Of a DNA stretch of 64,000 nt, positions 26,601 through 50,476 are shown in pieces. The notes beneath the pieces are model-generated. The model saw nothing but the letters and a program-made list of their open reading frames with translations. It was not told the DNA's origin and did no database searches. The position numbers and the translations under genes were made by a program. The stretch is taken from IMG/VR virus record IMGVR_UViG_3300045988_141150, one strand, 5' to 3'. Within the stretch, counting starts at the first letter, position 1. Each line of letters opens with the position of its first letter. Origin of the DNA: a virus.

Positions 26601-29600
26601 AGTAGAAGAATGATTGTTCGAACTGCCGGTAGCTTTTCGATGAAATCCCTAAATTTTAGGAGGAGTTTTTCCGCCGCTAAAAGATACTAAACGCATACCG
26701 CCAGGAGATTTTGTAGGTTCCTCAGCTTTTGTTTCTGTTATTGTTGAAATTGAAGGTAAATTAATAGTATGTTTACCTAAGAATCCAAGATCAAAAGTTT
26801 TAGGATTGTCAGCCTTAATATCTACTACGCGAGTAATAGTTTCAGCATTTGGCATTTCCGCAGAGGTATCAATATCTTCTGCGTTATAGACTGGTTCATA
26901 GCCAATTCCTGCAAAATAAGCATTAGCTTCATCTGCAGTCATCTAAGATTCCTTAACTAAGTTATTAGCTGCTTCTAAGAAATCAGCATCATCAACTTTT
27001 GCTCCAATCTCAATGGTCGGATCAAGTTTAGAGCAAGCATCTTTAACTTTCTAGTCTAAAGAATTTATCTAAGCAGTAAATTCTTCATCTTGTCCTAAAG
27101 TGATTCTAGCAATAATCTCTTCATCCATTGAATTTCTTAAAGAATCAATAGCTTTTTCATCGCCTTTAGCTGCTTTAGCAATTTCATCTAAATGGCTAGT
27201 AACAAAATCATCTGAAATAAACTCTTCTTCAACATCAAGGACATCAGATAAAGCAGAACGGGTTTTAGTTAAAGCATTAAAATATTCTTGACTGCCCTTA
27301 GTACTATTCTTTAAAATATCATTCCAAGTTTCAAAATTACCTGATAAAGTTTCTACTCCTTTATTCATTCGAGTAATCTAAACTGCTAAACGGGCAGCTG
27401 CGTTAGCATTCTAAGAAACACTATCATCAAATTCTGATGAATTTTTAGATACTTCAAGAATATAAGAAGCATAATCTTTCATAGACTAAACTTCATCATC
27501 ACTTAGTCCCATTTCTTTACCGGCATTAGTAAAGAAATCAGACATACTATTTAATTCTCCGATAGCATTTAACTCTTTAAGACCATCTTTAAATTCATCA
27601 ATGGTTACCTATCCATTAGCTAATTGCTATACTAATCTTTGATAAGCTTCGCTTTGTTTGTCTATATATTTAATACTTTCACTAAAATTCTATAAATCTT
27701 CTTCAGAAGTACCATAGGCTTTAACGATTTTATTAAAATACTTAGTACCTAATTCTGTATCACCAAAAGATTCTTGTAAGCTTCTCTAAAAACTATCTAA
27801 ATAATTTAATTGATTTAAATCTAAATTACTTAAATCTATACCGTTTAAAGATTTCTGCAAAGTATTCTATAAAGCTGTAGTAAATTTTTCAGCTACTTCA
27901 GGAGAAGAATAAGCTTCTGCTAACTAACTATAAAATTGATCTGCACTAACTTTTAATTCTTCATCATCGACTTTCAAAATCATATTACCATTACGCTAAG
28001 CAACATAAGATACATCTTCATATCCTTGCTATTTAAGTAACTAAATATAATCTTGAATTTCTTGCTCATTACCACTATAATTTATATGTTTATTCCATTT
28101 AAAATCTTTCTATAATTTAGATTTCTAATCTGCAACAGTTTGACTATAAATATCTTCTCCATTAAATAAGTCATTTATTTCATCAGCAGTCCTATCACTT
28201 CCAAGAGCTGAAAATTCCGCTTCCAATAAATTATTATATAATAATTTTCCCTATTCTTTTAAAGAAGAATTTTTAATTATCTAATCTTTATTTTCTAAAA
28301 TAAATTGATAAAAAGCTTCAGCAGTCTCATCACTAATAGCTCCAATACTAGTTCCAGTGGCATCTACTATAGCAGTTAATAACTCTCTTGCTCCTTCTTT
28401 AGTATATAACATATTACCAAAGTTAGGATTATCAGCAGCATTCTAAATCATTTCACTTATACCTGCTTTAGTAAGAATACTTTTACTTGACACTAAATCA
28501 ATAATATTCTAAATACCCTAATCACTATCTTTAAATTGATTATAACTATTAGTAATTTGCTAATCATTTACCGCAATCTAGTCTCTTATTTTTGTCGCAG
28601 TAAAAATTTTAAGATTTTCTTTTTGAGATTCTCCTAAATATTTTCGCCCTTCATCACTAATATCCATAGCTCCATTTTCATCAATGCTGACGTATTTAGA
28701 TAACTCAGGATATTTCTCTAATAATTTAGTAATTTCAGCATTAACATCAGAAATGGCTTTATACCATTCAATTGTGCCAGGAACTAAATCACCAATTGTA
28801 TCTTTATAAGACTATAATTTTTCTAATGCTGAGTTAGTTTCATCAATATTATTATTTAATTTATCAAAAGCTTCAGAACTCGCTTTTGCATTCTCTTCTA
28901 ACTTTTTTAATTTTGCTTCTGGAGTGCTTTCCTGCATTTTTTTAAATCCAATAGCAATTAAAGTTACAGCTCCCGCTAAAGCAATAAAAGCTCCAGCCGC
29001 AATAAGCGCAGTTGCGGCAACTAAACTTATACCCATTTTTGCTGCTAATAAAGCTGCCGTCTAAATTAATAAACTATTAGCAAATTTTGTTGACGCAAGA
29101 GCAGCCTAAATCTCTGCTAAAGTCATCTCTTTAGTAATAACTATTTTGCCTTTTCCCGCTGCAGTATTAGCATTTATAGCAATAGTTTCAAGTAATGTCT
29201 ATGCTGTTGATTTTAATTGAGCAGCAGTTTTCTTTAATTCTGCTTGTTTAAATTGATTTACAGCAGAAGTTAAAGAAACTAAAGCCATACTTAAAGACAT
29301 AGTAATAGATAATAGTTTATCTCCAATACTCATATCTTCATCTTGTAAGGTATCAATAGCTCCTTTTAAAGACATTAACCCCATTGATAAAGAAGAAAGG
29401 GCTGTAAAACTCTAAGTAATTGATTTACCAAAATCATTTAAAGCACTTTGATATCCGCTAATAGCACTTTTTATCTCGACAAACTAATTACGTAATCCTT
29501 CGTGACCTTTTTTTACAATTTCAATTTTTTCTTTTAATTTTAATAGAGTATTTCCTAAAGCTTCAGCCAAATCGTCAAATTCTTTAGCAGCTTTACCAGT

Positions 29601-31877
29601 TATTCCAAACTATTCTTTTAAAAATTGTACTCGAGCACTTATTTCAATCGCAGTATCAGATAATAAATCCCCCGCATTTACATTTTCTAACTTTTCGAAT
29701 TCTTCTCTAAAAGCTTTGACATCTAATTCTCCATTTTCAAAACGAGCTGATAAATTTCTCACTGCTTTAGCGGATTCTGTTAAATGTACCTAATCTAATG
29801 CTTTAGCTAATATTTCAAACTCAGCATGAAGCTCGGTAGATCTATTTTTTAAAATCCCAATTTTTTCATTAATGGTATTTAAAGCAGCCGCTCCTTGGTA
29901 TCCTGTATCTACGACACCATTTAAACTTTGTCTTATTTGTGAATAACTTTTTAAATTATTTTCTATACTACCATTTTTAGAATCATTTCTTATAATTGAT
30001 CTTAAATCAGTATTAATGCTCTATAACTCTTCAGTTACCTAGTCTTTAGCCTAAGCCGCCTTAATAACCTAATCTCCATAAGCCTAATTAATTTTAATTA
30101 AATTTTCTAACTATTCTCTTTCTTGTGAAGTTATATCACCAGAAATTTTCTAAATTTCTTTTTTTAATTCTAAAGTATATTTTAATTGTTCACCAGAAAC
30201 AGCATCTGCTTCAGTAACATTATCAAAAGCCATATTAGATGCTCTAGTATAAGCTTCTTCTTTCATCTACTCAGCAGAGCGTTTAGTGTATCCTACCAAA
30301 GACTATATACCAAATCCAACATTACTTAATCCCTAAGCGATTTGCTTATTAAAAACTTTGGTAAATATAATTCCAACAGCAGCAATTACTCCTGGTAAGC
30401 CACCCATACTTTCTATTAAATCATTTATTTTATCTAAAACGTCGGCTAATAAATCGTTTAATGTAATAAAAAATTTATCATTAATCAGCTCAGCATAGAC
30501 GCTCTATGCAGCTGCTTTTACTCTGTTACTAGCAGCTTCCCAAGATTCCGCATAAATATCAGCTTGTTTTTGAAGAGATCCATCAGCACTCTATGCTCTA
30601 GCAAGATTTTCTTTATAATAATCAAAATGGTCCATCAAAGCAATTAATTGAGTATATTGACGGACACCCGCAACCTATTGTGCTAAAGCCACTTGCTAAT
30701 CTTTATTAATACTCTGCCATTTATTACCCATTTCTTCGATGATGTTATCCATATCTTTTAATTCACCATTAGAATCTTTGATATTAATTCCAACTTTTTC
30801 AAGAGCCTATGAGTATTGATTTAATGTAGTACCATCTTCTAAAGTTTCGCCAAGCTTCAAGCCTTGAATACGAGCAAAGATAGTTTTTAAAGCTGTACCT
30901 ACGACATCTTCACTTTGACGAGTAGTAGCAGTAATAGTAGCTAACGCGGCAGCTGCGTTATCAAAGCTTAAACCAATAGTATCAGCGACAGCGGCGAATT
31001 TTTCAAGACCGCCAGCAATTTCGTCAGAGCTAGATGCGGTATCTACACCTAAGCGCACCATCGCATCAGCGTAATGCTCTAATGATTGACTTCCATCATA
31101 AAAGTTATTCCAAACAGCAGTCATCTGATCTGAAACTATTTCAGCACTTTCACGAGCTACATTTGCCATTTTAATAGTAATATCAGTGCGTTCTTTTACC
31201 TATTCATCATTTAAACCCTATTGATAATAAATTAAAGCAGCGTCAGTATATTCAGTAGTAGTTGTGCTTAAAGTTCTGGCCGCGATATTTGCCTATTTAG
31301 CAAATTTAGCCATCTAATCAGAGCTCTAACCTGTAACAATACGGATATTATTTAAAGATTTATTTAAATCTTGAGCGTATCCATAAGCAGTCTAAACTGC
31401 TCCCATAAAACTATGAATTGCACTTGAAGAAATCTGCCAACGAACTGTATTCTTCATAACAGTCCACATTTCAGATACTAAAGCACTTGTTCTTTTTAAT
31501 GGAACGTCAGCCTCAATAATAGATTGAGATAAAGTCATAAAGGCCTTTTGGCCTTCTGGTCCTAATTCCATTAAATTACTCTATAATTTTTCTAAGTTTA
31601 AATTACTCTATCTTAAAGACTAAGAGAACTTAGTCAAATCCATTTTCCCAGTTTTTATATTTACCGTTTGAGATAAAATAGTCTATAACTTAGAAGCGGC
31701 TATTTGTGCTTCCGTCAATTCTTTTGTTATAGGTAATTTTTGAGTTTGAACTTCATTTATTGAAGACTTCAATAAATTATCTAACTAAAATTGCAAATCT
31801 CTAATTTGATTCTAAGCTGATTTAGCATCAGTAGTAAATTGTAAATTAACCTAATAACTATTTAATTGTTTAGCCAT
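23624..31877 (-). CDS. tail tape measure protein (about 2,750 aa, TAG about every 80-100 codons)
   Basis: ATG at about 31877 with AGGAG RBS; N-terminal segment (ORF 30807..31169) resembles the TP901-family tape-measure core; Ala/Gln/Glu-rich helical repeats; transmembrane segment (ORF 28812..29036); same frame from 30807 to 25143, then followed by hand to TAA at about 23624. Confidence 0.7.
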
Positions 31878-32596: not shown

Positions 32597-33622
32597 TTAT
32601 TTTTTATTAAATAATAATTCTTCAGTTAATTTTTCGCCATGATAGCGGACTAATCCATCAATACTTTTTTGACTTAATTCTCTTATCTAACTAATTCTTT
32701 TTTCTTTTTCTTCAATAGTGAAACGATTTATGAAATCAGCAAAACTTTGAGGTGAAAACTATTTATCTCTTAAAATTTTTAACCATTTTATTATAGTAGT
32801 ATATTTCTATGGAGATCCGCCTTCACCCTTAACTGCATATTGGATTTTCCCTCCAGATACATCTCCAATTAAAAATCCATTCATATTATCAGCATTAATC
32901 GCACCCATAGTAGGATCTAACATAAAATAATCAATATTTGTTTCAAGATCTGAATTAAATTTAATATTATTTATATAAAAAGATACAAATGCTTCATTAA
33001 TAGGACCACGAGTAGACATTGTATATCCTTTCCACGAATCTTTATACCATAATATTCTCTTTTTATATTTATTATATCTTAATTCTACTTGCATTGCTGT
33101 ATTCTATAATCCTTTATTATCATCATCCGGCAAAGCATTTTTTAAATTTTCATAATGCTAATTCATATCATATTCTAATTTAGCATAATTATAACCCTAT
33201 ACAGACGTTTTTTTAACTGCTTGAATATTTTTTATATCATTATCCATTAATCTAATTTCTCTTTGGCCTGTAATTGGATCGACATAGACAGCAGTAATTT
33301 TTATTTCTTGATTTAAAAACTCATTAATTAAATTCTATAAATTAAAAAATTCCTAATAGATTAATATTTTTTTCTACTCTAATAGATTTAAAGTCATAGT
33401 CATTGATTTATTTATTTTACTATTATACTTTTTCTAAATATTATCAAAAATAGTAAAATGATTAATTAATATTTCTGATGATTTTCTTATTTTTTCATAT
33501 AATTCTTTAAAATGTTCCTACTATAACTACTCTTTTACCATATCTTCAGTCCAATAAATAAAATCTTCGGCAATTTTCTAACTTTCTTGACTATTATCGC
33601 TATAATTATTTTTAATTACCAA
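32597..33622 (-). CDS. hypothetical tail protein (about 341 aa, about 10 TAG including a TAG-TAG pair)
   Basis: TTG start at about 33622 with AGGAGGA RBS 7 nt upstream; frame followed by hand through ORF 32807..33094 to TAA at about 32597. Confidence 0.4.
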
Positions 33623-33642: not shown

Positions 33643-33675
33643 ATAACAAAAAAATGGGAGAGAATATTTTTATTC
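33643..33675 (-). terminator. rho-independent terminator
   Basis: atgggagagaata..tattctctcccat hairpin plus T7 on the minus strand after the stop at 33687. Confidence 0.5.
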
Positions 33676-33686
33676 TCTCCCATTAA

Positions 33687-33869
33687 TTAATCTTTTTTAT
33701 CTAATTCAGATAAAATCTTACTTACCTCATCTTCCTCTTGAAGAATTACTTCCTCAATAGGTTCGATAAGCTCTTTCTTTACAGCCTTTTCTACTTTTGG
33801 CTGCTTTTTAGTAGATTCTTTTTTAGGCTGTTTTGGTGGAGTATATTTTACTGGACCTTTTACAACCAT
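33687..33869 (-). CDS. small Lys/Glu-rich protein (60 aa)
   Basis: intact ORF directly downstream of the major tail gene; TAG-free. Confidence 0.45.
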   Translation of the reverse strand: MVVKGPVKYTPPKQPKKESTKKQPKVEKAVKKELIEPIEEVILQEEDEVSKILSELDKKD

Positions 33870-33874
33870 ATTAA

Positions 33875-34858
33875 TTAGCCTCCAATAGCAATGGTGCTAT
33901 TAGCAGCGGTCTTTCTACGAATATCGTTGTCAACAGTTTCGTCTTCTTCAATAATCTGAATAGCAGCCAAAACTTTCTTACTATGATCGAAACGAGTATA
34001 ATCAGGGAATGCGTCCATAGTAAAAGTGAAAGTGGAAGGATCACCAGAAGAAGCCATTGTAAAGTTAAAGTTGGATTGAATCTTGCAGTTAGGAATAATA
34101 AATTCAGCAGGCATATCTACGCCGTCTTGATTGCGGAATAAGGTAGAAGCTTCAAGATAGTAGTTACCACCGAACTTATCAGCAGTAATTTCAATCTGCT
34201 TAGCGCCAGATTCACGCTCAGTATAATAATCAACCATTACGGAGTCGCATTTAGCATAATCATTCTCTAAATCGTTAGTGGTATAAGCCACTCCACTAGC
34301 ACGATCAAATCCTTTTACGGTAATACTAAAACCAGTCTCTCCCGTAGTAACTCCTTCATGCGCCAGATAAGGCTCAGAAATAATTTCGCCATCTTTCATA
34401 AAGAAAACATAAACATAATCGTCATCTTTATGCTCATTATCAAGATAAGGGGCATAAGAAACAGGAACGATTAGTCCATCAGTCTTAATGTTTTTTCCAG
34501 CGTTAGCAGGGACAATGTCTTTAGTCTTATCAACAGTTTGAGTAATATGTTGCTTAATCTTATTATCAGCAGAAGCCTCAACAAGACCAGCACCGGAAAG
34601 AATCATGAAACCTTCAGGAGAAATAAGAGCATCTTCCATTGTGAAGGTAACAGTACGCTCGCCTTCCCATGCGACTAAGTTAGTATTACCACGACCACCT
34701 TGTGCGTATACGGTGGTAGCAGCGCCTTCCATACTGGAAGTCTTTAAAGTGTCGAAATAAATAACTGGCTCATTCTTATAAAATTGCTTATTACCAATCT
34801 TTTGATTAGCCTTTGCCTTTAAAACGACATCGCAAATTTCGCGTACACCAAATTTCAT
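33875..34858 (-). CDS. major tail (tube) protein candidate (327 aa), TAG-free and GC-richer
   Basis: intact ORF; position upstream of the chaperones and tape measure; roughly 40% GC against roughly 28% for its neighbours; TAA stop. Confidence 0.5.
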   Translation of the reverse strand: MKFGVREICDVVLKAKANQKIGNKQFYKNEPVIYFDTLKTSSMEGAATTVYAQGGRGNTNLVAWEGERTVTFTMEDALISPEGFMILSGAGLVEASADNKIKQHITQTVDKTKDIVPANAGKNIKTDGLIVPVSYAPYLDNEHKDDDYVYVFFMKDGEIISEPYLAHEGVTTGETGFSITVKGFDRASGVAYTTNDLENDYAKCDSVMVDYYTERESGAKQIEITADKFGGNYYLEASTLFRNQDGVDMPAEFIIPNCKIQSNFNFTMASSGDPSTFTFTMDAFPDYTRFDHSKKVLAAIQIIEEDETVDNDIRRKTAANSTIAIGG

Positions 34859-34882
34859 AGGTTTTTTTCCTCCTTAAAAAAT

Positions 34883-35605
34883 TTAATGGATATTTTTCAT
34901 CCAGTTATCCGGCTTATTATCAGGCTTTGCGCCTGCTAATCTAGACCGGATATCAATATCCCAATTAATATAAAGTTGATATCTTTCAACAAGGTCATAG
35001 AGTTGGAACATTGTTAAATCCATTAAATCCTGTAAAGACATTGAATCAAGACCTATAGTAAGCATTGAAAGATACTAACTAAATATACTAGCATTAGCCG
35101 TGCCGTTTAATTCAGCGACACGTTGTCTACCTCGCATTAATTTATCGGCTATCTTTTTCGCGGCCGCACTTCCAGGATTAAATCCCATTTCTTGCGAAGC
35201 ATTAGATTTAAAACAAAATATTTCTTTAATATATTCCTATAATATATTAAAATTGCTTTCGTCAATCATTATTTGTGGGTCACCTTGTAAAACAATTGAC
35301 CTAGGGGTAAATAAAACATTTTGCTTTGGAAACAATAATGTAAGAACCTACATAGATGCTTGTTTTTTATCGGCCATCTCTTTTTCTTTCATCATTGTCA
35401 TAAATATCTAAAAATTATTTGTTTCTCTTAAAAGACTTTCGCCCGAATTCTCTATTATGTTTTTATCAATACATAAACACTAAATCCCCAAGAAAAGATC
35501 TTTTTCACCTATAAAAGAAATTTCTTTTATAGATGGCTAATGAATAGTGACTTCTAATTCAGGTATTGGTAAATCAATACCTGTCATTAATCCAAGTCTG
35601 ATATC
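34883..35605 (-). CDS. hypothetical neck/tail completion protein (about 241 aa, about 7 TAG)
   Basis: ATG overlaps the stop of the upstream gene (TAATG); frame followed by hand into ORF 34883..35065; TAA stop. Confidence 0.4.
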
Positions 35606-35607
35606 CA

Positions 35608-36189
35608 TTACTCTTCAGTTCTTTTTTTAAAATCTTCTATAAATCTTTCCTCGTCATTAGGATTTGGCATAGATTTTTTATCTTCTTCACCATGAACTGC
35701 CTGATACATAAGACACAAACCCGCATATTCATCAGTTAAAATAATTTGATTTGCTCCAAGAAATTCTAACTTACCAATACCGGTTAAATGCGTTTTATCT
35801 ATCATGCTATCAATTTCTGCGGCAATACGATAAGGGCGCAATTGGTAATCTTTTAAATGCCATTGATCAAAATGACAAATAATATCGAATTCAATAATAT
35901 TGTCTCTAAACTCAGGATTTCCACTTTGTGTAAAATTATCAAAATTAATAATTAAATAATTTAATACACTTCCATCAACATAAAGCTTAGGAATTAATTT
36001 AATATTTTTATTAAATAATTGAATCATTTGTTCATCATTTAGATCTGGCTTATCAATAGCATCTTTTGTTGTATAATACAATAATCGCTTTAATCTCTCA
36101 TTTTTACAGAGATGTCTTACAATAATTTCTAAATCTTTTTCAACAGAAAGAAAACTTGATTTAGGTAAATTTACACCATTAATTTTCAT
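35608..36189 (-). CDS. hypothetical head-tail joining protein (193 aa), TAG-free
   Basis: intact ORF; TAA stop. Confidence 0.5.
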   Translation of the reverse strand: MKINGVNLPKSSFLSVEKDLEIIVRHLCKNERLKRLLYYTTKDAIDKPDLNDEQMIQLFNKNIKLIPKLYVDGSVLNYLIINFDNFTQSGNPEFRDNIIEFDIICHFDQWHLKDYQLRPYRIAAEIDSMIDKTHLTGIGKLEFLGANQIILTDEYAGLCLMYQAVHGEEDKKSMPNPNDEERFIEDFKKRTEE

Positions 36190-37550
36190 AACACCTTTTA
36201 CTCCTTAAAACAATGATTGAACTACAATCGTTTTCTTATAATCTCCATAACATAAATCGAACTATCCACTATATCCAGAAGTCCAACTTATTTCAACTGT
36301 TGGCTTTTTTGCTTCTTTAATAACTTTTAAAGAAACTGGCAACTTTTTATTATTCTTTATTTTCCATTCTAGAACAACTTCACCATCAAAATAATAAGTA
36401 TAAGTTTTCTTTGGGAAAATAAATGTTTCCCCTATAATATCAGTTGTCGTAGGATTTGGATCAATTGGTTCCGCAATTAAAGAACCAACAGTCTTATTAT
36501 CTAAATTATCTTCCTACTCATTAATATAATATTCAGTCGCATTAACTTCTAAAATACCTGGCATACTTATTGAATCTACAGCTTCAACACGCCAACAAAT
36601 TAAATTGTCTCCCTCATCCTAACCATCTAAATAAAATTTAGTATAACGCCTAAAATAACTTAAAGTATCTTTATTTTTTGGCATTAAAATATTTAATGAA
36701 TAATTAGGATTATCTACACTAATTTCATGTTTCTAAATATAATTAATTTTCGTTTCTACCGGACCGCGGATTGCTGCATAAGTAGATTTTTTCTCTCCAT
36801 TATCTACCCAATTTATTTTATAAGAGCATTTTCTAATATCTCCTCTAAAATAAGCCAATTCAGTTAAATCCTAAAGATAACAAATCCAATAGGTATTAGT
36901 TCCGCACCATTCAAAGATATCTCCCGGTTTAAACTAATACTCATTTCCAACAGACAAAATCTTGTCATCATAATCCTATTTTAATTTATTGGGATTAATT
37001 AAACACCTAATAGGTTTTTTATATTCCGCATCCTATTTAATAATTTCTGCGGCTTGATATGAATTCCATACTGCTCTATCCAAGCTTCTGCGCTTAGATA
37101 AAATCATACGCTCTTGTTGGCGGTTTCCGCCCATTTGACCGAGCCGAACCGCCATATAATTAACGCCTTCAACAGGGCTACCTTCAAAGGGTGGTTTATC
37201 ATAAATTCCTAAGCGACCTTGCTATAATCTAAAAGGTTGCTTACTACTATAATCAAACCCTGACGCCATAATTTATCTCCTATAAAAGACTGATCGTTTC
37301 AAATACAGTCTTACGATAAAAATTAAAATCAGTATCTCGATTCTACAATCCCTCAAGTTTATTTAATAACTATAAATAAAGGGGTTCAGCGTTAAAAATC
37401 ACACTAAACCCCACAATTTCATTTATAACAGTTTCTAGCTATTTATGCCAATCTTCATTATTTTCGCGCATTGGAATTAATTTCCATAATTGATTGGTTA
37501 AGCGCAAACAATTTACCTTTATACTCTCTATTGGAATATCAAAATTATAT

Positions 37551-38124
37551 TTAGTAATCATATCGACTTTTAAACACATCCCAATTAGATTCATACTCAC
37601 CTTTGTCATTTAGACGTCTGCGTTTATATAAACGCTACATATGGTGAGATTGTCTTTGGCATTCACTTAACAAACTTAACAGCTTTGATAGATGATTTGC
37701 CTAAGAAGTAAATTTAAAATCAGAGCCACTATATTTCATTCGAGTATTCTCAATTGAAGTGACTTGCCTTTGCGTCCAACCGCACATCATTAAAATAGCT
37801 AAAATATTAATTTCTTCTTCAGTTAGATCACAATTAAAACTAGATCTATCAACTAAAACTTGAGGTTCTTCACCCGGTTCTGGAAGTTCTCCCCATACCG
37901 TTCCTACAATAAAATCATCCGGCATAGCATCAGATTCATTAATAGTAGCAACATCTAAATTATAATCTAAAAGATTTTTTCGCGGAAATTCAAATCCAGG
38001 AATAGCATCTATTATAAGATTCTATAAATCTCTTAAAGTATCTTCAGGAGTCAACTCCAGATACATGTCATCAGTAACCTTGTTTAGAAAGCGATTATAA
38101 ACAGCTGAGAATAATGTTCCCACT
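37551..38124 (-). CDS. head completion / connector-like protein (about 191 aa, 3 TAG)
   Basis: GTG start with GGAGGG RBS 6 nt upstream; frame includes ORF 37701..37925; TAA at about 37551. Confidence 0.35.
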
Positions 38125-38142
38125 TAATCGCCCTCCTATAAA

Positions 38143-38736
38143 TTATTTCTTGGAGGAAGTTTCCTCGGTTTTATTAATTACTTTATATCCAGAACCGCTT
38201 GTGCGACGACCTTGAGTAGTAGGTTCTTCTCTTACTACACGGCGCTTAGCTGCTGGTTCTTTCTCTACAATAGTATCTTCTTCTTTACTAGCGATATCAT
38301 TAGCAATAGCTTTATCAACATCAAACCCAGTTTTTTCCTTCAAAGCTCTACGCTTATTAATATCAGTAATAGGAAGGCTAACAGATAAATTCTTGATTAA
38401 GTCAATAATTCCAATAGGAGCAAAATCAAGAGCATCTAAGAAAGCATCTAATGAGCCATTAAGAATTAAATCAGCAACTTGTTGCTCTGACATATTATAT
38501 TCAGGTTCAGTATGAACATTAAGAGTATGAGTTACTTCTGGCTCTAAAATTTGTAAAAAATTAGCAATCAATTCGCGGCCGCCTGCCTGATAAGTTAACT
38601 TCTCTAACTCACCAAATGGAATACGTTTAGTTTCACCGGGCGCAAATTCACGACGCAAATTAGTATCAGGAATAGTATAAACAACTACGCTAGTGCTTCT
38701 ATTTTTTACATTATAAATATCTTCATTATTAATCAT
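38143..38736 (-). CDS. hypothetical head protein (197 aa), TAG-free
   Basis: intact ORF with RBS; follows the terminator after the capsid gene. Confidence 0.45.
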   Translation of the reverse strand: MINNEDIYNVKNRSTSVVVYTIPDTNLRREFAPGETKRIPFGELEKLTYQAGGRELIANFLQILEPEVTHTLNVHTEPEYNMSEQQVADLILNGSLDAFLDALDFAPIGIIDLIKNLSVSLPITDINKRRALKEKTGFDVDKAIANDIASKEEDTIVEKEPAAKRRVVREEPTTQGRRTSGSGYKVINKTEETSSKK

Positions 38737-38771
38737 TATTCAATTTCTCCTTTTACTCATAAAACAAAAAT

Positions 38772-38804
38772 ATGGGGAGAGGGAGTTTAATCCCTTCTCC
38801 CCAT
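38772..38804 (-). terminator. rho-independent terminator after the capsid gene
   Basis: atggggagagggag..tcccttctccccat hairpin plus T-run on the minus strand. Confidence 0.5.
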
Positions 38805-38822
38805 GGAATAATTTATATTAAA

Positions 38823-39929
38823 TTAGACATTGCCATCAAGACGGCCATCATAAGTGACAACCTTACCGGTGACTCCATCATAATTCCAAGTATACATCTG
38901 ACCGAGAAGTGAAGTATCAACATAGGCACAGATGTTATTAGCAAGCATACAAACTACGCCAACCTTCTTGTAAACCTGAATCTCACGAGAACGATCATAA
39001 TTGTTAAACTCGTCAACAATAGTGCCGCCTTCGAAAGCAATCTTTACAGGCTTACCATCAGCGCCCGTAGGAATAACCCAAGCATAACCAGGATCAATAA
39101 CCTTACGAGTATTGGTTTCATCTTCAAAGCCCTGCTCAAGAATAATAACCTTAGTGCCCTTGTAAGTAGCAAGACGACCATTATTCCAAAGCTCGTTCTT
39201 CATAGCTTCAGTATATCTCCAAGCCTCATGAGGAATCATCTTAACAGCGAACTCATAAGTGCAATAAATAGTAGGAGTACCATAAGCAGAAGCAATAGTA
39301 ATCAAACGATCCATAGCCGCTTCATCAAATCCGGCAGCCGCAACGCGGTTAGCAGGAGGAAGTTGATTGATAGAAGATCTAAGAGCAGCAGCAACTTCTT
39401 TATAAATAAGTTCATCCATACCATCCATGATGATCTTGGTTACTTCACCAAAATCAACACGACCATCAAGGAACTCTTCGAAGCCAATCTGAGCAGCTCC
39501 GCCGATAGCGCTAGTACGTACCTCGAAGGCTTCATTCTCTTTAGGTCCGAGCTTGAAGACTTCATAAATACCAGCAAGACCAACGCGAGTTACAAACTGT
39601 TTAGCACGAGCACGATTATTAAGAGGACGACGGAAGACAGGCTTATCACCCTGAGCGAAAGTCTTAACCTCAGCAAACTGATCATATTGCTGAATAACTT
39701 TCTTAGGAAGAACCTCATCAAGAGTCTCCTCAATCATAGAGAAAATAAGATTCTTATTTTCACGATAAAGAGCGTAAGTACCAGCCAACTCATTCATTTC
39801 ATTACGAAGAGTTTCATTTAAGGCTTCATAACTAAGATTTTTTCCCTCATAACTATAAGCAACAGGAGCAGAAGGATCAGCCTTAGCAACTTGCTTCATA
39901 AGAGCAACTAAATTATTTTTATCTAACAT
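38823..39929 (-). CDS. major capsid protein candidate (HK97-fold-like, 368 aa), TAG-free and GC-richer
   Basis: intact ORF; size, composition and a helical N-terminal segment typical of HK97-type capsid proteins; follows the scaffold; roughly 42% GC. Confidence 0.5.
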   Translation of the reverse strand: MLDKNNLVALMKQVAKADPSAPVAYSYEGKNLSYEALNETLRNEMNELAGTYALYRENKNLIFSMIEETLDEVLPKKVIQQYDQFAEVKTFAQGDKPVFRRPLNNRARAKQFVTRVGLAGIYEVFKLGPKENEAFEVRTSAIGGAAQIGFEEFLDGRVDFGEVTKIIMDGMDELIYKEVAAALRSSINQLPPANRVAAAGFDEAAMDRLITIASAYGTPTIYCTYEFAVKMIPHEAWRYTEAMKNELWNNGRLATYKGTKVIILEQGFEDETNTRKVIDPGYAWVIPTGADGKPVKIAFEGGTIVDEFNNYDRSREIQVYKKVGVVCMLANNICAYVDTSLLGQMYTWNYDGVTGKVVTYDGRLDGNV

Positions 39930-39946
39930 TATCCTTTTCTCCTTTC

Positions 39947-40864
39947 TTACTTAATACGCATTACCTTGACGCCCTTTTGACCATCAGGCATAGTATAAAC
40001 TTTAACAACCTGCCAGATCATTGAATCGTCACCAGTTTTGCTAAGAATACCCTTTGTAGCAGCAGAAGGAGAAAGTTTATCTCCAACAGCAAGAGTCTCT
40101 TCATTAATCATATTAGTAGTGTAAAGATCACCAATCATGGTCTTAAATACACGAGGAACCATAGAAGTGCCAGATTCCATGAACTTCTCATGATAGATAC
40201 CTAACTTATGATATGGATCATTGGTCCAATTTGCTTCATATATATCAGGAACATCAGTAAGAAGTTTATCATAGTAATACTTTACAGGAACATTAGCAAC
40301 CTGATGATTACTATCAAGAGTATATTCATTACCATCATAAGTAAACTTGCCAGTTTCATCAACATCATAAACACGGCCAGCAATAGTAACAGTCTTTAAA
40401 CCCTGATCAGCGGAAACGGTCTGATTGATCAATTTATAAGTTTGACCCTTATCATCAACGCCGTTCCAGAAACGACCACCATATTCAACCTCGGTATGCT
40501 CCCAATCATAAGGGCTATAAACACGAGCCTGATAGTCATCCTTAAGCATAGCAAATTCGCAATCCCACTGCTTACTGCCATCAGAATGATCACGATAAAG
40601 CTTAATCTCGTTATAAACGAGCATCCATTCACCTTCGCCAGTAAAGTTGACTTCGCCGATACCATTACCATTAGCAGCATAGTCATACTTTACAAACTGA
40701 CCGTTTTCAAGAATCTCAATGTCTTTATTGGCGGGAAGTTGAGCATAGATTTGAGCATTTCTTTGTGCGGAAAGGTGATTAGGCTCGACCTGACCGTAAC
40801 CAAACTCAACATACTTTGCCTGAGACTTAATAGGAAGATTCTTATTCAAAAAGTCTTTAAACAT
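39947..40864 (-). CDS. abundant head protein of unknown function (305 aa), TAG-free
   Basis: intact ORF between the scaffold and the capsid gene; higher GC. Confidence 0.4.
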   Translation of the reverse strand: MFKDFLNKNLPIKSQAKYVEFGYGQVEPNHLSAQRNAQIYAQLPANKDIEILENGQFVKYDYAANGNGIGEVNFTGEGEWMLVYNEIKLYRDHSDGSKQWDCEFAMLKDDYQARVYSPYDWEHTEVEYGGRFWNGVDDKGQTYKLINQTVSADQGLKTVTIAGRVYDVDETGKFTYDGNEYTLDSNHQVANVPVKYYYDKLLTDVPDIYEANWTNDPYHKLGIYHEKFMESGTSMVPRVFKTMIGDLYTTNMINEETLAVGDKLSPSAATKGILSKTGDDSMIWQVVKVYTMPDGQKGVKVMRIK

Positions 40865-40881
40865 TTAGTATGTCCTCCTTA

Positions 40882-42471
40882 TTAATTTTTGTTGGCGGTA
40901 GCAAAAGCCGCCTTCACCCAAGCGGGCATATCATCATCTTCTGAACCATTATTGTTCAAATTAAAAGTAGTAGCACCATTGGGCTTATTATTTTCGTCAA
41001 GGTCGAAACTCACCTTGTTGCGAACACAAATAACAGATAATTTAGCTTCAATATCATCAAGAGAATATTTATCAATATTTTTAACAACATCAGCCTTATC
41101 TTCATCAGAAAGCATATAGAATTTAGCAATCATATCTTCTTTATCTTTCTTCTCAGCAGCATTTTTAAATTCAGCAAGTGGAGCAATTTGCTCTTTCAAG
41201 CTATTATTTTCAGTTTCAAGAGCCGCGAATTTAGTCTGTAATTCATCATACTGAGCTTTAAGTTCAGTATATTCAACGACATCTTCAAGAGAATAATTTT
41301 TCTTTTTCTTTTTATCATCGTCATCATTCTCGCCTTTGTCGCCTTTGTCAGACTTATTAGAGGGTTCTCCATTATCAGGATTCTTCTTATTATCATTGCC
41401 CTCTGATTTATTATCAGGGTTTTGGCCATTAGATTTATTATTTTTGTCCTCTTCCTCAGCCTTTTTCTTTGAAGCATAATTAGTCTCAAAAGCTTCAATA
41501 TCAGCAAGAGCAAACTGAGGCTCTGCTGCCGGAGTATAAGACTTAGTTACTTCAGTTAAAGCGTCAGAAGGAACAAAGCCTTCTGCATCGGTAAGAGAAA
41601 AGTCCATGCGATAATATTTTTGATCTTGTCTATTTTGAAGAATAGCAAACTTTTGTCCAGCATCTTCATAAACGCCTTCAATGCGATAAATAGAACAATA
41701 ACTACTAGGCTCGCCAGGATACTTAGTCTCAATATAAGACCAGAGAGAATTCCACAAACTATCGCCAATTTCAACAGCATATTGTGTAAACACTTTGGGT
41801 CCTCCTTCTTTCATAAATTCTTTAAGTTCATTCATCATGGAGAACAAAGTGTTCTTAAAACCATCATCGAATGAAAAATTCACATTGATTTGGGAGCCTT
41901 CGAAACAAGGTTCATTTTCTTCTCCCAAAATACAAAGTTTAGAAATAATTGCCTTATTTATAATAAAAAACTAAGGCTTTCCATTACTATCTTTTGCCCA
42001 CGTAGCATTTAATGTTTTTTCATCAAGCTCCATAGAATGATTATTCCCTTTATCAACTACACGTTTACATTCAGGATACTAACCAGTCCACAAATAACCT
42101 TCAGTCATTAAATATTCACGTTCGACAACACCATCATCCAAAAATTTCTAGAACCAAACTTTAGCTCCAAGATCAACAAAACCATAAGGGCGAGTATTAT
42201 CTCTCATTCTAAATTCGCCATTAGATAATTCAATTATCCTATTATGTTCTTCAAAATCTTCGGTATTTTCGTTAAAAAAGCCAACAATAGGACTGCCTGG
42301 AAGACTATTAGCCATCTCAGTCGCTACATCTTTAGTGATTACGCTTTTATTACGATTAGGCTTATCATCTACATAGCAAACCTTAATTTGGCATTTAGAA
42401 ATTAAAGGATTTACAGGAGTTATATTTATAAACTCACAAGGTGTATTTAATTTAATACTTGTATGTTTCAT
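40882..42471 (-). CDS. scaffolding protein, possibly with an N-terminal protease-like domain (about 529 aa, 3 TAG in the N-terminal third)
   Basis: ATG at 42471 with GGAGG RBS; frame followed by hand through 3 TAGs into ORF 40882..41928; acidic, Lys/Asp/Glu-rich coiled-coil C-terminus typical of scaffolds. Confidence 0.45.
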
Positions 42472-42480: not shown

Positions 42481-44130
42481 TTATTTCATTGCTTCTTTAT
42501 TTTGAATAGTTTTTTCACTTTTCTAATCATCAGGTTTTTCCGGACGTCCTGCTTCGCCATTAGAAACTTTAGCAGTTCCAGAACCTGAGCTTCCTGAATT
42601 ATTTTGAGTTTTATTATTAGATGATGAACCTTTTAAACCCAAAATATCTTCACTACCCATAGTAGAACTCATAAGAGGAGGAATCATAATTTCACTTAAA
42701 TGTAAAATCTCATTTTCAAAATGAGCTGCATTAAGAATAAAACTCTATGAATGTCCAAGAGCAATCTAAGACAATAGTTTTGATTGTCCCATTTGCGCTT
42801 GTTCTTTATACATTTTAGAAAGTGTTTGATAATTATTCTGAGTAGTTTCTAATAAATAAAATCTAAAATTATATTTCTTATTACTACTCTTTTTTTCAAT
42901 AATTCTATTAAAGAATATATTAAACTATAAAATTAAACTTCTTATTGTAGATTCATCATTTAATACTGATTTTTCTAAAGCCATATTGCCATCAGTATTA
43001 AACAAATTCTATGAAATACCTAATGAATTATAAACACTACGTTCAACTTTAGCTAAATCATCTGTCGTTGTAGTAGTATTTTTATCAGACATATCAATAG
43101 AATCTACATCAGTAAATGTAGTTAAAACATCTACTCCAATAGCCCTCTATAACATCTAAACGGCATTATTATGGATATCTCTGGCTTCATCAACATCAAA
43201 TATCAAATCACCATTTTTATCCATTGGGAGCTTTTGGACTAAAATTTTAAGCAACTTCTACATTTGTTTCTTGCGGTCAAGATCTTGCGCTGCATCTAAA
43301 TCCATAATAGTAGGAATGGAATTTACAAAAATAGGAACATCACTATTATTAATATTAAATTTAATACAATTTTCTGGCTCAAGAACATACCAACTACCAG
43401 TATGCTAGCATCCAACCGCATCTTCTAAAGCAAGTTTTCCTTGCTTATATAAAACATAACCTTTAGCAAATTCTTCTGGGAATAATTTTAATACTTTTAA
43501 GCGATAATTCATATCTTTAAAAGTATCAAAAAATCGCATATCAAATTCGACAACTGGGATATTATTTACACTATAACGTGTTCTACAATATCTAACTGGC
43601 AATTCTTGTAAAATTAGATTTTTCTCTGAAGGAACTATATATCCATAATAGCATCCATTTTTAACAACTTGCAAAGCAATATCTCCACAAATCTTTTTAA
43701 TATAACTATTATCAAAATAATTCAACATTCTATAAAAATCTTTTAAAACTTTTTCTTCTTTTACATTATCATCATAAGTTTCGGCTGCAATATACCAATC
43801 ATAGCGGTATAAAAAAGCAACATAATTACAAACTCGTTGATATACACCACTTATATCATAATAAAAATTAGAAATGTATCGCAAAGTATTTAAATCTCTT
43901 TCTGCGAGTGCGCGAAGCACATCAGGTTTCGTAATAATACGATTTTGACCTGGGTATCTAATCTTACTATAATCACCAAGTTTTAAAATAGCATCATCTA
44001 AAGTTTTTGTGCCAACTTTTATTTTTCTATTGGCATAATCCGTAGCATCATTATAATTATATTCACAACGACCATTATAAATATCAAAACCTTTAGCATG
44101 AATCTAATCATTACGATCTTGCGTATCCAA
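42481..44130 (-). CDS. portal protein (about 549 aa, multiple TAG)
   Basis: TTG start with GGAGG RBS; frame followed by hand into ORF 43405..43920; TAA at about 42481; size and position between terminase and scaffold. Confidence 0.5.
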
Positions 44131-44512: not shown

Positions 44513-46066
44513 TTAATTTAAAAAGCACCAATCAGCTGCATTAAACTTTTTACGTTTTTTCTTTTTATCTTCTTCAAGTTTTAAATAATATAATCCATAT
44601 TCAAAAGCCGAAAATTTATCTTTACGAATTCCGCGATTTGCTTGTTTTAGAATAATATTAATACCTTCATTTTCTTCGCGTAAATTCATCATTTCTTCTT
44701 TTAATATGGAGGTTAAAGTAAATGGTTTTAAATAATCTGCCCTTTGTTCAGGAGTCATTTTTGAACCTTTTTGAGTAGCTAATAATTTTTCTTTAGCCGT
44801 TCTCTCATCTATTAAGAATTTTACCTTACCCGCTTGTAATTGAGTCTGAGCATTAGCATGACATTCAGTATTTATTGGAGCATTTGCTTTAATAACATAC
44901 ATAGCATCAAATTGAGTATTTGGTGTGCGATATTTTTTATAATATCCATCATCATCATTCTCAACGCCAAAATCAGGTAAAAATTCACCATCTTCATCAT
45001 TTTGAGATTTTACCATATAATCTAAAAGCCCAATACCTAAACCATTACCGTCTATAACTAAAGTTTTAGCTTTATATTTATAAAATAATTTCTTTAATTT
45101 AATAGCCTAATCTTCAAAATGATCATCTGACATAGTATACATATTTACTAATGATTTAATAGCTGGACCTTGAGCTTGTGGTGTTACTTTAAATACACAA
45201 ACTACTGAATCGCATCCCTTACGGCCTACATCTACAGAAAGCACATAATAAGCTTGCGCGCCCGCACGTCCAGAAGCTTCATACTCAGGCTATAATAATT
45301 TTCTATTTCTATCAAAATGCTCTCCATTAAAGAAAGCATCTTCAACAGTTCCTGACCACTTAGATTCATATTCACGCTCAAATGAGGCCTCGTTATAAGT
45401 TCCTTCATTCTTTTGGTCAGTAATAAATGTCTTACTTTGTAATCCTACCGCAACAGGAGTTCGCCATGTTCCGCCTAATACCATACAACGATCGGGCTAA
45501 GTTACCATACGAACTAAGAAACCAATAAGTCTATCATAAGGGAACGTGCCCTTATAACCAGCAGTAGTAATATAGATTTGTGATTTATTTAATGGCTCTT
45601 GCTCATTGGTAGTGCCATCTTTAGCTCTACGGGAAATTGCCATAACAGGAATAATAACTTCACGAAGGATGGCATCATCAATACCAACACACTCTTCCAT
45701 TAGTCCACCATGACGACGCTGACCACGAGTGCTTTCACGAGCTGCGAGGTTATCTAAAACTGAACCATTTTTAAATACATATCTAACTTTATCTTTTCCT
45801 TCAAGAGTTTTTCCTCGGCTCCAATCAATTTCTCGATTAAAACTTGGAATAAGTTCACATATTTCTTGAACTTTATCATGAAGAATACTAGCACCTTGTT
45901 CTTTACCTCCAGAAGTAACGAATAGATGCGCACCAGGATACAAAATACATCTAATCATTAATGCCATAACAGACAAAAATGATTTAGAATAAGCACGAGG
46001 AAAAACCGCGTAAACATACTAATAACGCATAACAGAACGGAGAAATACTCTCTAATAAAAATAAAA
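44513..46066 (-). CDS. terL: terminase large subunit (about 515 aa, at least 4 TAG)
   Basis: ORFs 45497..45976, 45290..45484 and 44513..45016 share one frame; ATPase-like N-terminal region and nuclease-like C-terminus; position upstream of the portal; TAA at 44513; start not resolved. Confidence 0.55.
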
Positions 46067-46251
46067 ATTAAATTCTCCATCTTTTATTTCAGTGCGTCTT
46101 CCTCGCACCATAAAATCTACAAATAAATCAGGATATTCTCTCCAAAAAGCAACGTATTTTCGGATGATGGGCATTACCGCCTCTACTCGCTCCGGTGATA
46201 AACCTATTTTTCTACGGCTATCACTTAACTACAGTAAATCTTGTAATGCCA

Positions 46252-47488: not shown

Positions 47489-48544
47489 TTAAGATTTTTT
47501 GGCCTTAGAATTTCGACAACTTTTACAAATACTATAAAAGCCATCTTTACTTGTTTTATTTTTACTAAAATATTTATTGTGAGCTAATTTTATTTTGCCA
47601 CAACGACTACATTTTTTATATTTACCTTTTTCAACATTTAAATAATAATTATCTAAGTATTCATCTTCCGCAGTCGAAGCAATTAATTTTGGAATTTTAT
47701 TACGCCATAAACTTGAAATATATTCAAGGCTGTGCTTAATACCAAATTCCATTTGTATTTTCTCTTGAATGTCAATATTTTGTAAACCATCAATTTTATA
47801 TTCAACGATTCTATCATAAAGAGGATAATTAGCTAAAGCTTTATCACAAAGTTTATCAAAATCCTCCATTAAATACCATAAATCTTTATCATATTCGCCC
47901 CAACTATCTTGCTTTAATCGGGAATAATTACATAAAATCGCAGAACATATCTCAGGTCTTAATAAACTAATTCCATCAGGAATGGGAAAACCATCATCAT
48001 CAAAAATAAATGTTTCATCATCTAATGGAATATAAGACTTTGATCTGGTTAATTTTGTAGGCACTATTGGACGACGATAAGCATTTTTTATAACATACTA
48101 ATCTTTACGCATTTCAATAAGAGCCTTTTTAATAACAAAAGCATCTTTACCTTCTGTTACTTTTAATTTAGCCTCCCAAACATTAATGGCTTCTCTTAAC
48201 TAATTTAAACTTGGTATCTCTTCTAAATCTTTTTTTGTAATTGTAATATGTGGTTGAAATATTGTATTTCTATTATCTGTAATTAAATTATAAATTCCAT
48301 CTTCGCCATTTTCGAGTTGGGAAACAAGACCTTCAAAAGAAGTCTCACGTTTATTAACTGTAGCCATACGATTATCAGTTAATAATTTTTTCTCCTTTTT
48401 TTCTTGTTTCTCCATACAAAGAACCAAATAGTCTGCTAAAATTTCTAAATACTTTTCAGGCGGATCTGGATTATCAGCCAAAATTTGTTCGACTAATTGA
48501 TTTCTTTCTTCTGGAGTTTGTAAAGAATAATCAAGTTTTATCAT
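47489..48544 (-). CDS. first late-operon protein (351 aa if both TAG are read through; 114 aa if TAG terminates), C-terminal zinc ribbon
   Basis: ATG at 48544 with GGAGG RBS; TAG at codon 115 (48200) and a second TAG (48098); same frame continues into ORF 47489..48064; TAA stop. Confidence 0.5.
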
Positions 48545-48568: not shown

Positions 48569-48597
48569 ATTATACTCGAAAAAATTTTTTTTGTCAA
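48569..48597 (-). promoter_or_regulatory. sigma70/sigmaA consensus promoter for the late operon
   Basis: minus-strand TTGACA (48592-97), 17-nt spacer, TATAAT (48569-74), about 20 nt upstream of the RBS and ATG of gene 47489..48544. Confidence 0.55.
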
Positions 48598-48679: not shown

Positions 48680-48708
48680 TTGACATTTTTTATTTTTTAT
48701 TTTATTAT
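48680..48708 (+). promoter_or_regulatory. promoter for the first plus-strand gene
   Basis: TTGACA-17-TATTAT. Confidence 0.4.
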
Positions 48709-48736
48709 TATTATAAGAAAAAGAAAAGGAGTATTT

Positions 48737-49129
48737 ATGGAAATTATTTTTATTGTATTATTGAGTTGTGCGTTAGTAGTATCCCTCCTTTTTTTATGGT
48801 TATACAGAAAAGCCTTTTGGGTATTATACCAAAAAATGGCAAATCAGCAAAAAGAATTAAATAAATGGCCAATCGCGCAATATGAGTGTATGTTATTATT
48901 AAATATATTTTATAATTATGACTTTGAGGGAAGAGCAGTAGATTTTTCGCGATATGAAACGCAAGGACTAATTGTTTATAATTGTTTTCATGAAGCGAAA
49001 AATAGTCCAAAAGGAATTACAAATGATGGAATTGTTTCATCATTTTATAAACAAGCATTTGTATATGAATTAGATGATGGAACATTTGAATGGGAGGATA
49101 TTGAAAATGGGTCGGAACCAGCCTTTTGA
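48737..49129 (+). CDS. small membrane protein (131 aa)
   Basis: ATG with AAAGGAG RBS; N-terminal transmembrane helix; standard code; AT-rich. Confidence 0.55.
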   Translation: MEIIFIVLLSCALVVSLLFLWLYRKAFWVLYQKMANQQKELNKWPIAQYECMLLLNIFYNYDFEGRAVDFSRYETQGLIVYNCFHEAKNSPKGITNDGIVSSFYKQAFVYELDDGTFEWEDIENGSEPAF

Positions 49130-49502
49130 AGTAAGAGGAATAGATGCGGTAATATTTAGATTAGAACAAGAATATTCTAACGCAACAAGAGATAAAGATC
49201 CTTTTGTAAGAGATTGGAAATTATTTAAAACAATACGTATTGAGAAAAAGGATAATGGGTCAAGAACAATTACTTACAGACCTTTATCAGACGCGGAAAA
49301 GGCTCAATTAAGCACCAAAGAAGAACAAGAAGAATATCAGTTAAACAAATACAAATATGTATTAGAGCACTTAATGGAAAAATATGATATAAATACTATT
49401 AATAGATATATTGATAGTTGTAAATATAAAGATAAATTAATTGAATATATTGAGAAAAAATTAAATGCGGAAACCACTCAGCCCTTTGAAGGCAATTGCT
49501 AA
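49107..49502 (+). CDS. hypothetical protein (131 aa)
   Basis: ATG at 49107 with GGAGG RBS; overlaps the end of the upstream gene. Confidence 0.5.
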   Translation: MGRNQPFEVRGIDAVIFRLEQEYSNATRDKDPFVRDWKLFKTIRIEKKDNGSRTITYRPLSDAEKAQLSTKEEQEEYQLNKYKYVLEHLMEKYDINTINRYIDSCKYKDKLIEYIEKKLNAETTQPFEGNC

Positions 49503-49596
49503 AAAGTGTCAGCAGAAAGTCACTTATTCTGTTACTTCTGGATTATACACTCTTATGCAGGGTGAGAAACCTAAAAGAGGTAGAAAAAAGAAATCA

Positions 49597-49707: not shown

Positions 49708-49739
49708 TTGCGTTTTGACCACGCAAAAGGAAAAACACA

Positions 49740-50445: not shown

Positions 50446-50476
50446 GTCTCTCTCTTTCTTGCGGATCGGCGAAGAT

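Follow-up and report, generated by a model that had tools for sequence, protein, structure and literature searches.

Uneven use of a reassigned TAG codon among the virion genes of a large phage, and its near-absence from capsid, head and tail tube genes

Why should a handful of virion genes make almost no use of a reassigned stop codon that the genes around them use freely? The question is raised by the viral record IMGVR_UViG_3300045988_141150 (IMG/VR), of which we analysed a stretch of 64,000 nucleotides, here called the window, whose genes for virion proteins are strewn with in-frame TAG. A preliminary description of the window, made from the letters alone, had picked out five open reading frames (ORFs) that lack in-frame TAG and look richer in GC (guanine plus cytosine) than their neighbours, and had offered two answers: that highly expressed genes are selected against the recoded codon, or that the intact genes were recently acquired from a standard-code phage. 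As set out below, the feature is real, statistically strong and evolutionarily conserved, and it has an ordinary explanation; we favour the first of the two answers, selection on highly expressed genes, and would put its probability at roughly 0.8.

The window comprises the late (virion) module and part of the early region of a large gut phage of Bacillota. The late module, on the minus strand at positions 1-48544 (GC ~0.29), is broken up under the standard code, and read-through of TAG makes it contiguous, with the summed length of all ORFs of at least 150 amino acids in the window rising from 9,414 to 20,386 amino acids; the portal, the terminase and a 2,752-codon gene of tape-measure size are intact once read in this way. 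PHROG profiles match a sigma-factor-like gene, the large terminase, the portal and virion structural proteins. The late genes have strong Shine-Dalgarno sites and, in several cases, TTG starts, and their starts were curated accordingly before TAG was counted, which gives 233 in-frame TAG in 15,830 codons, all of them confined to this module. Late genes stop at TAA (25) or TGA (4), and 20 early ORFs that were checked stop at TAA (12) or TGA (8) and none at TAG; TAG appears to have been lost as a terminator throughout the window, beyond the recoded part too. Set against standard-code relatives, the TAG codons of the window face CAA or CAG in 808 of the 1,558 codons aligned, glutamate and lysine being next commonest, and because glutamine codons are the main partners, TAG in the late genes of this phage is, judged from these alignments, read as glutamine.

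The genes on which the argument turns are the following, where GC3 denotes GC content at third codon positions and TAG/Gln the share of glutamine codons that are TAG.

38823-39929, minus strand: probable major capsid protein gene (HK97-fold family); 368 codons, TAG 0, GC 0.409, GC3 0.30.
39947-40864, minus strand: putative head-module protein gene, between the scaffold-like and capsid genes; 305 codons, TAG 0, GC 0.383, GC3 0.31.
33875-34858, minus strand: probable major tail (tube) protein gene; 327 codons, TAG 0, GC 0.389, GC3 0.30.
38143-38736, minus strand: small head-module protein gene, just downstream of the capsid gene; 197 codons, TAG 0, GC 0.347.
40882-42471, minus strand: scaffold-like gene, coiled-coil with an acidic/Lys-rich C-terminal part; 529 codons, 3 TAG.
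9757-11418, minus strand: putative tail-module protein gene, called a fibre in the preliminary description; 553 codons, TAG at 0 of 17 glutamine codons, GC3 0.12, codon adaptation 0.64.
42481-44130, minus strand: portal gene (phrog_2739 'portal', 9.5e-82), a low-copy comparison; 549 codons, 10 TAG.
44513-46174, minus strand: large terminase gene (phrog_2 and others), a low-copy comparison; 553 codons, 5 TAG.
23619-31877, minus strand: tape-measure-sized gene, so labelled by size and position only; 2,752 codons, 80 TAG (1/34 codons), TAG/Gln 0.42.

A direct count bears out all five ORFs as free of in-frame TAG, namely the capsid, head, tail tube and fibre-like genes and what had been called a scaffold C-domain. 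This last is indeed a TAG-free stretch, though not an ORF of its own: it makes up the C-terminal portion of the 529-amino-acid scaffold-like gene, whose three TAG all fall within the first 181 codons and whose last 349 codons (40882-41928; GC 0.353, GC3 0.27) have none. The late genes outside the five carry all 233 TAG in ~14,600 codons, amounting to 34-36% of their glutamine codons, and the four head and tail tube genes have TAG at 0 of 39 glutamine codons as against 233 of 641 elsewhere (Fisher p=7e-8). Across 27 genes the use of TAG is uneven (chi2=78, df 26, p=4e-7), and permutation and simulation that allow for the after-the-fact choice of TAG-free genes give p<1e-4, so that TAG density is not uniform once gene length is taken into account. 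Nor are the TAG-free genes contiguous: TAG-bearing genes part the head block from the tail tube gene, and the latter from the fibre-like gene. Two further genes lack TAG, 38143-38736 and 35608-36189, of which only the former stays depleted in relatives.

The flanking genes were said to carry a TAG about every 80-100 codons, which proves too uniform a picture. Their densities span 1/24 to 1/176 codons, and those of the named genes run from 1/34 in the tape-measure-sized gene through 1/47 (gene 20105-23503), 1/55 (portal) and 1/99 (gene 1890-9638) to 1/111 in the terminase; in the portal, terminase, tape-measure-sized and baseplate-sized genes, TAG stands at 20-60% of glutamines. The extreme is gene 32597-33622, where 14 TAG in 341 codons make up 64% of the glutamine codons.

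The same avoidance recurs well beyond the window. A scan of IMG/VR with the capsid protein retrieved 80 loci with capsid identities of 76-99%, which fall into 23 lineages by portal and terminase; 20 of these, the window's own included, are recoded, and no fewer than three are standard-code. Every one of the 19 recoded lineages besides the window's shows depletion of TAG in the abundant genes, with 22 of 828 glutamine codons being TAG in these genes versus 852 of 2,373 in the others (2.7% vs 36%). Gene by gene across the recoded lineages, TAG/Gln is as follows.

Head gene: 0.01 (3 TAG in 5,551 codons, 19 lineages).
Capsid gene: 0.01 (3 TAG in 6,924 codons, 19 lineages).
Tail tube gene: 0.03 (4 TAG in 4,735 codons, 15 lineages).
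Orthologs of 38143-38736: 0.09 (18 lineages).
Scaffold-like gene: 0.19, an intermediate value.
All other genes: 0.22-0.52.

As the loci were retrieved by the capsid protein only, the depletion in the head, tail tube and small head-protein genes cannot stem from retrieval bias. Only the close clade has the fibre-like gene, and there 19 close relatives have 0-3 TAG and a TAG/Gln of 0.08, compared with ~0.2-0.4 for most neighbouring genes. It is also telling that the abundant genes are rich in CAG, a codon one transition away from TAG (the capsid gene of the window has CAG and CAA at 8:3, and its orthologs together hold 706 CAG, 320 CAA and 12 TAG); TAG is therefore missing despite ample mutational opportunity.

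The relatives extend to deposited phages. The capsid protein is 50% identical to that of phAss-1, 40% to those of Enterococcus phages and 22-28% to those of SPbeta-like phages of Bacillus, Staphylococcus and Mammaliicoccus, and by such similarity the phage is related to phAss-1, Enterococcus EF1 and the SPbeta-like phages, with phAss-1 its closest deposited relative; a megablast search of the head region against deposited phages gave no match. In phAss-1, the scaffold-like, head, capsid, small head-protein and tail tube genes lack TAG and exceed the rest of their region in GC, whilst their neighbours carry 6-25 TAG.

Composition sets these genes apart as well. The five ORFs had been put at roughly 40% GC against roughly 28% around them, and on exact calculation this stands for the tail tube, capsid and head genes (0.389, 0.409 and 0.383, with GC3 ~0.30, against a pooled GC of 0.298 and GC3 of 0.169 in the other late genes), but not for the remaining two, the excess being weak in the C-terminal portion of the scaffold-like gene and the fibre-like gene having a GC of 0.320 and a GC3 below the module mean. 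Third positions give a little under half of the 0.098 GC excess and first and second positions give the rest, with alanine, valine and glycine up and asparagine, leucine, isoleucine and serine down, alongside synonymous replacement of TTA by CTT and of AGA by CGT; the high-output genes are GC-richer, in other words, because of preferred codons and a composition rich in Ala, Gly and Val.

Translational selection shapes the codon usage of highly expressed phage structural genes, and the bias seen here has its marks. Relative to the other late genes, the TAG-free genes raise GCT (0.80 vs 0.55), CGT (0.70 vs 0.27), CCT (0.83 vs 0.50), CTT (0.56 vs 0.18) and AAG (0.66 vs 0.17) and lower ATA (0.01 vs 0.22) and AGA (0.15 vs 0.46); TTC, AAC, ATC and TAC are also raised, and the G-ending four-fold codons GCG, CCG, ACG and GTG are lowered. 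The set preferred in the high-output genes thus consists of GCT, CGT, CCT, CTT, ACT, GTT, the C-ending two-fold codons and AAG, GAG and CAG, with ATA, AGA, GGA and TTA avoided, while the early genes, at 43% GC, use another and flatter set. Such a narrow optimal set, with C-ending two-fold and T-ending four-fold codons, is what translational selection in general produces, as is a lower synonymous divergence: at greater evolutionary distances, divergence at four-fold sites is 0.26-0.43 in the capsid, head and tail tube genes versus 0.5-0.6 in their neighbours. What is unlike the general case is that the disfavoured set includes a reassigned stop codon, the decoding of which would need a suppressor transfer RNA (tRNA) and would compete with termination. 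The bias of the TAG-free genes is, then, what selection for translationally optimal codons typically leaves, and not a uniform shift in GC.

When codon adaptation is scored against the capsid, head and tail tube genes, in leave-one-out fashion and with TAG excluded, the capsid gene ranks top in the module, and adaptation tracks TAG per codon closely (Spearman -0.79, p=5e-6), whereas GC3 has no correlation with TAG density (Spearman 0.09 for the full set and -0.07 when only genes of 150 codons or more are taken). The fibre-like gene separates the two measures, combining the low GC3 and the high adaptation listed above with a complete lack of TAG. Across lineages the signature persists (GCT, CGT, TTC and CAG up, ATA near zero), standard-code lineages included, and the capsid, head and tail tube genes of standard-code relatives have this GC excess and codon bias too. 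The elevation of GC3 depends on the lineage, and recoded lineages that lack it, such as L048, avoid TAG too; the preferred lysine codon switches from lineage to lineage, suggesting that they are adapted to different hosts.

How abundant the proteins in question are likely to be depends on what they are. For the capsid gene, the label given in the preliminary description is reasonably supported by a match to phrog_4088, by sub-threshold matches to NCBIfam NF042927 ('HK97-fold major capsid protein') in 5 of 10 members of the family, by a match of one member to Pfam Phage_capsid_4 (6.9e-7) and by a homolog annotated as major capsid protein in Bacillus phage PJN02. The tail tube assignment, likewise reasonably supported, draws on a match to phrog_2729 ('virion structural protein') and on many annotated homologs, which go by major tail or tail tube protein among Tsamsa-like phages of Bacillus and by structural protein in the Lactococcus 949 group; variation in this protein is concentrated in a central domain (~residues 92-226) between invariant N- and C-terminal cores. 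The labels 'head protein' and 'fibre' come from position. Of the head protein, only the C-terminal ~90 amino acids are conserved with Enterococcus phages and phAss-1, and it is possibly a decoration or cement protein; the fibre-like protein has no match in Pfam, PHROG or NCBIfam. The scaffold-like protein matches phrog_3313 and coiled-coil-type Pfam families. Pfam gave no match to the capsid, head, tail tube and fibre-like proteins of the window itself, sequence and profile searches of the PDB returned nothing for capsid and head and, for the tail tube, only a match to tail tube proteins at E=0.1, and a Foldseek search of predicted models against the PDB gave nothing below E=0.01.

Synthesising these observations, we propose that the tolerance of a late gene for TAG declines as the required output of its protein grows. 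In this model, UAG would be read by a scarce suppressor tRNA in competition with the host release factor RF1, such that each UAG would cost time and give truncated product; the cost would scale with the number of molecules made, and fragments of self-assembling proteins may in addition poison assembly. Purifying selection would then purge CAG-to-TAG changes from high-output genes, whereas drift under AT pressure would fix them elsewhere. The capsid, head and tail tube genes, whose products are presumably present in hundreds of copies per particle, carry essentially no TAG, the genes of the small head protein and of the scaffold-like and tail-fibre-like proteins are partially depleted, and the portal, terminase, tape measure and baseplate-sized genes, whose products would be needed in a few to a dozen copies, carry it commonly. 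The first answer offered in the preliminary description is in this way supported by the correlation with codon adaptation, by the 19 further recoded lineages, by phAss-1 and by the wealth of CAG in the avoiding genes.

Saying this, several points weigh against selection on expression as we have framed it. That the TAG-free proteins are the 'most abundant' is something we infer from their roles, and since the head and fibre-like roles are putative, the label is the weaker for it; expression levels, the suppressor tRNA and competition with RF1 are likewise inferred elements of the explanation. The reference set behind the correlation of -0.79 was built from TAG-free genes, a circularity that leave-one-out scoring and the exclusion of TAG lessen but do not fully remove. 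Genes outside the TAG-free set are still heterogeneous in their use of TAG (p=0.002), and expression level is therefore not the sole factor; a few lineages do have one or two TAG in the capsid, head or tail tube gene, and the avoidance is thus not absolute. In the 64 kb of the window, beyond which the genome continues, ARAGORN detects no tRNA. AlphaFold2 models were too poor for use both for the capsid protein (25-sequence alignment, pLDDT 41.5) and for the tail tube protein, in which only the variable central domain is confident (52 sequences, pLDDT 53.5), and a scan of bacterial genomes for the host led only to metagenome bins with inconsistent taxonomic labels, from which no host was obtained. 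Searches of the relatives' early-region loci for tRNAs did not find a suppressor tRNA either, and the window has no release-factor gene.

Among the other readings, one would see the TAG pattern as an evolved regulatory design on two tiers, more than a contrast of relaxed with strong purifying selection, with bulk virion proteins written in host-optimal codons that are independent of the code, and low-copy assembly and tail proteins in AT-rich codons, TAG among them, that depend on tRNAs supplied by the phage. We regard this as possible, if on balance doubtful. Were it true, the suppressor switch would gate the completion of particles through a few cheap essential proteins, at almost no cost in bulk synthesis.

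Timing might also matter instead of cost, in that bulk structural genes would be kept free of TAG so as to be translated whatever the state of a suppressor-tRNA switch, with a small number of essential low-copy proteins serving as the point at which that switch controls assembly. Such a gate would fit a published proposal that late and lysis genes are regulated by recoding (10.1101/2021.08.26.457843), and the TAG-bearing portal, terminase and tape measure are each essential for particles. It fits less well with the portal, which is needed as early as the capsid protein and carries 10 TAG, and with a depletion that is graded and not all-or-none, following codon adaptation in the manner that a cost model predicts and a simple on/off gate does not; moreover, the same genes are codon-optimised in standard-code relatives, where no gate exists. 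We therefore think gating unlikely as the explanation of the avoidance, though the two ideas are not mutually exclusive and both can hold.

Recent recombination from a higher-GC, standard-code phage, with TAG yet to accumulate in the incoming genes, was the second answer of the preliminary description, and we consider it very improbable. Potential donors do exist: in the portal plus terminase tree, standard-code lineages (the L028 group, L059 and L064, also L081) are interspersed among recoded ones, a pattern implying that, within one phage family, TAG recoding was gained or lost repeatedly. The tail tube gene is, in addition, mosaic among close relatives (68-97% identity where the terminase is at 99%), and the neighbour-joining trees for capsid plus head and for portal plus terminase disagree in places at deep branches. 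Against this, most shallow clades agree between the two trees, with the recoded lineage L024 as the sister of the window in both; identities of close relatives to the window are even across the head region (terminase 99%, portal 97-98%, capsid 98-99%, head 98%), and their divergence at four-fold sites is similarly low in the capsid, head, portal and terminase genes. The lower four-fold-site divergence seen at greater distances probably approximates the saturation expected under strong codon bias and is therefore not evidence of recent transfer. The depletion in 19 other recoded lineages and in phAss-1 would require the same transfer many times over, and into separate places with TAG-bearing genes between them; the codon shift is not toward the usage of a higher-GC genome, because G-ending four-fold codons fall; every tail tube variant, of whatever origin, is TAG-free, so that the mosaicism is one among TAG-free variants of a single family; and the standard-code relatives carry the same bias.

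Equally improbable is that TAG is scarce as a passive by-product of base composition in GC-richer genes. The three TAG-free genes of highest GC are indeed the GC-richest of the module, but GC and GC3 were rejected as causes of TAG density for want of any correlation, the fibre-like gene lacks TAG at a low GC3, and lineages without the GC3 elevation avoid TAG equally. The abundant genes also raise the G-ending codons AAG, GAG and CAG, and many CAG lie one step from TAG, yet TAG stays at zero. Chance, acting through short genes or few glutamines, probably does account for 35608-36189 (7 glutamine codons, TAG 0; orthologs' TAG/Gln 0.42), which we accordingly rejected as a sixth TAG-free gene, but in view of the heterogeneity and simulation tests and of replication in 19 further lineages it has a negligible claim on the pattern as a whole, and for the capsid, head, tail tube and small head-protein genes it can be dismissed.

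The idea that capsid genes avoid a recoded stop codon is already in the literature, anecdotally. A 2026 preprint (10.64898/2026.08.21.746148) describes a capsid gene without TAG in one amber-recoded crAss-like phage and credits host translational bias, capsid genes being subject to the greatest pressure to conform to host translation; this is the same observation with the same reason, made in one genome and for the capsid only, without statistics or replication across lineages, whereas in the clade described here, which belongs to an unrelated phage family, the avoidance extends to four to six genes, comes in degrees, follows codon adaptation and holds in 20 lineages. Yutin et al. noted one intron-rich crAss capsid gene without alternative coding, and Cook et al. 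found that, in predicted code-15 phages, 407 of 475 capsid genes called with table 15 had already been found with table 11 (PMC11210395). What is added here is quantification, more genes, gradation, 20 lineages, and the rejection of transfer and of composition.

The wider setting is that of code-15 gut phages (10.1101/2021.08.26.457843; PMC7886860, on crAss-like phages; PMC9523058), which share with the window late genes restored by reading TAG, TAG aligned with glutamine, early genes compatible with the standard code, a low-GC late module and close standard-code relatives; recoding of TAG to glutamine has proteomic proof (PMC9523058). These papers stress enrichment of the recoded codon in lysis and structural genes as a class, and depletion in abundant virion proteins is not reported there. 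The preprint of Borges et al. describes late-gene TAG recoding, low GC as its precursor, close standard-code relatives and selection that enriches or depletes stop codons in gene families, without mention of capsid genes (10.1101/2021.08.26.457843). Closer still is the group formed by phAss-1 (proposed Phassvirus), EF1, PMBT10 and SPbeta-like phages (PMC10607447), whose capsid, tail tube, portal, scaffold-like and further head genes have homologs in the window. In phAss-1 TAG is glutamine, as in the window; it differs in its GC of 44%, its gene order and its genome of 136 kb, the window's clade having a late module of ~30% GC and contigs of up to ~197-200 kb. The phAss-1 paper names terminase and tape measure as TAG-bearing, does not name the capsid gene among them and does not discuss avoidance of TAG (PMC10607447).

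Around the genes discussed so far, the window holds three further features.

47489-48544, minus strand: sigma-factor-like gene that opens the late module (phrog_5767 'sigma factor', 9e-55); 2 TAG.
33653-33684, minus strand: strong intrinsic-terminator-like hairpin with a 14-bp stem and T-run, placed just downstream of a 60-codon ORF (33687-33869) and of the tail tube gene.
48680-64000, plus strand: early region of small standard-code ORFs, divergently transcribed; GC ~0.43, GC3 0.51, no in-frame TAG needed.

Upstream of the sigma-factor-like gene lies a perfect TTGACA-17-TATAAT promoter (48569-48597, minus strand), and the hairpin may function to set the head-to-tail-tube genes apart from the tail genes downstream. 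Two minus-strand ORFs, 37551-38123 and 37253-37609, overlap in different frames by 59 nucleotides (37551-37609), which reflects either a mis-set downstream start or a programmed overlap.

The two regions of the genome are sharply split in composition, with GC ~0.29 (GC3 0.17) over 1-48500 and ~0.43 (GC3 0.51) over 49500-64000. Close relatives have early regions of GC 0.41-0.45 on the same contigs as their capsid genes, and the split is therefore not an assembly chimera. Some 29 near-consensus promoters of sigma-70 type lie on the plus strand within the 15 kb of 48680-63660, roughly one per small early ORF (TTGACA, 15-19 nucleotides, T[AG]N[AT]AT, most with TG just before the -10 box); the shared upstream sequence that bears them is visible as repeated peptide motifs in out-of-frame translations. 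A tRNA-like element at 51901-52015 (plus strand) has its own consensus promoter, scores 37 bits with the Rfam tRNA model and draws nothing from ARAGORN; it combines a normal acceptor stem, D arm and T arm with a ~58-nucleotide central arm in place of the anticodon arm, without a readable anticodon, and no copy was found in the relatives' loci. The early genes 60852-61226 and 63200-63580 (plus strand) are paralogs, 77% identical over 124 amino acids.

As for the provenance of the relatives, L128 (CAMELE010000001.1, 163,874 bp), whose capsid gene is 99% identical, entered the databases as an 'uncultured Mollicutes bacterium' genome assembled from a metagenome, and others carry bin labels such as Clostridia, Lachnospiraceae, Erysipelotrichaceae and Muribaculaceae; they have the look of phage contigs wrongly placed in bacterial bins.

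Within a recoded phage, the finding means, a reassigned stop codon does not simply stand in for the other glutamine codons at no cost; how often it is used is graded by protein output. That a capsid or tail tube gene reads uninterrupted under the standard code is consequently no proof that the phage uses it, and tools that predict the code from marker genes such as the capsid will under-call recoding; by the same token, local shifts in GC or codon usage in capsid-like genes should not be taken for horizontal transfer. The share of glutamine codons taken by the recoded codon, set against virion copy number, offers a simple measure of what suppressor decoding costs in nature.

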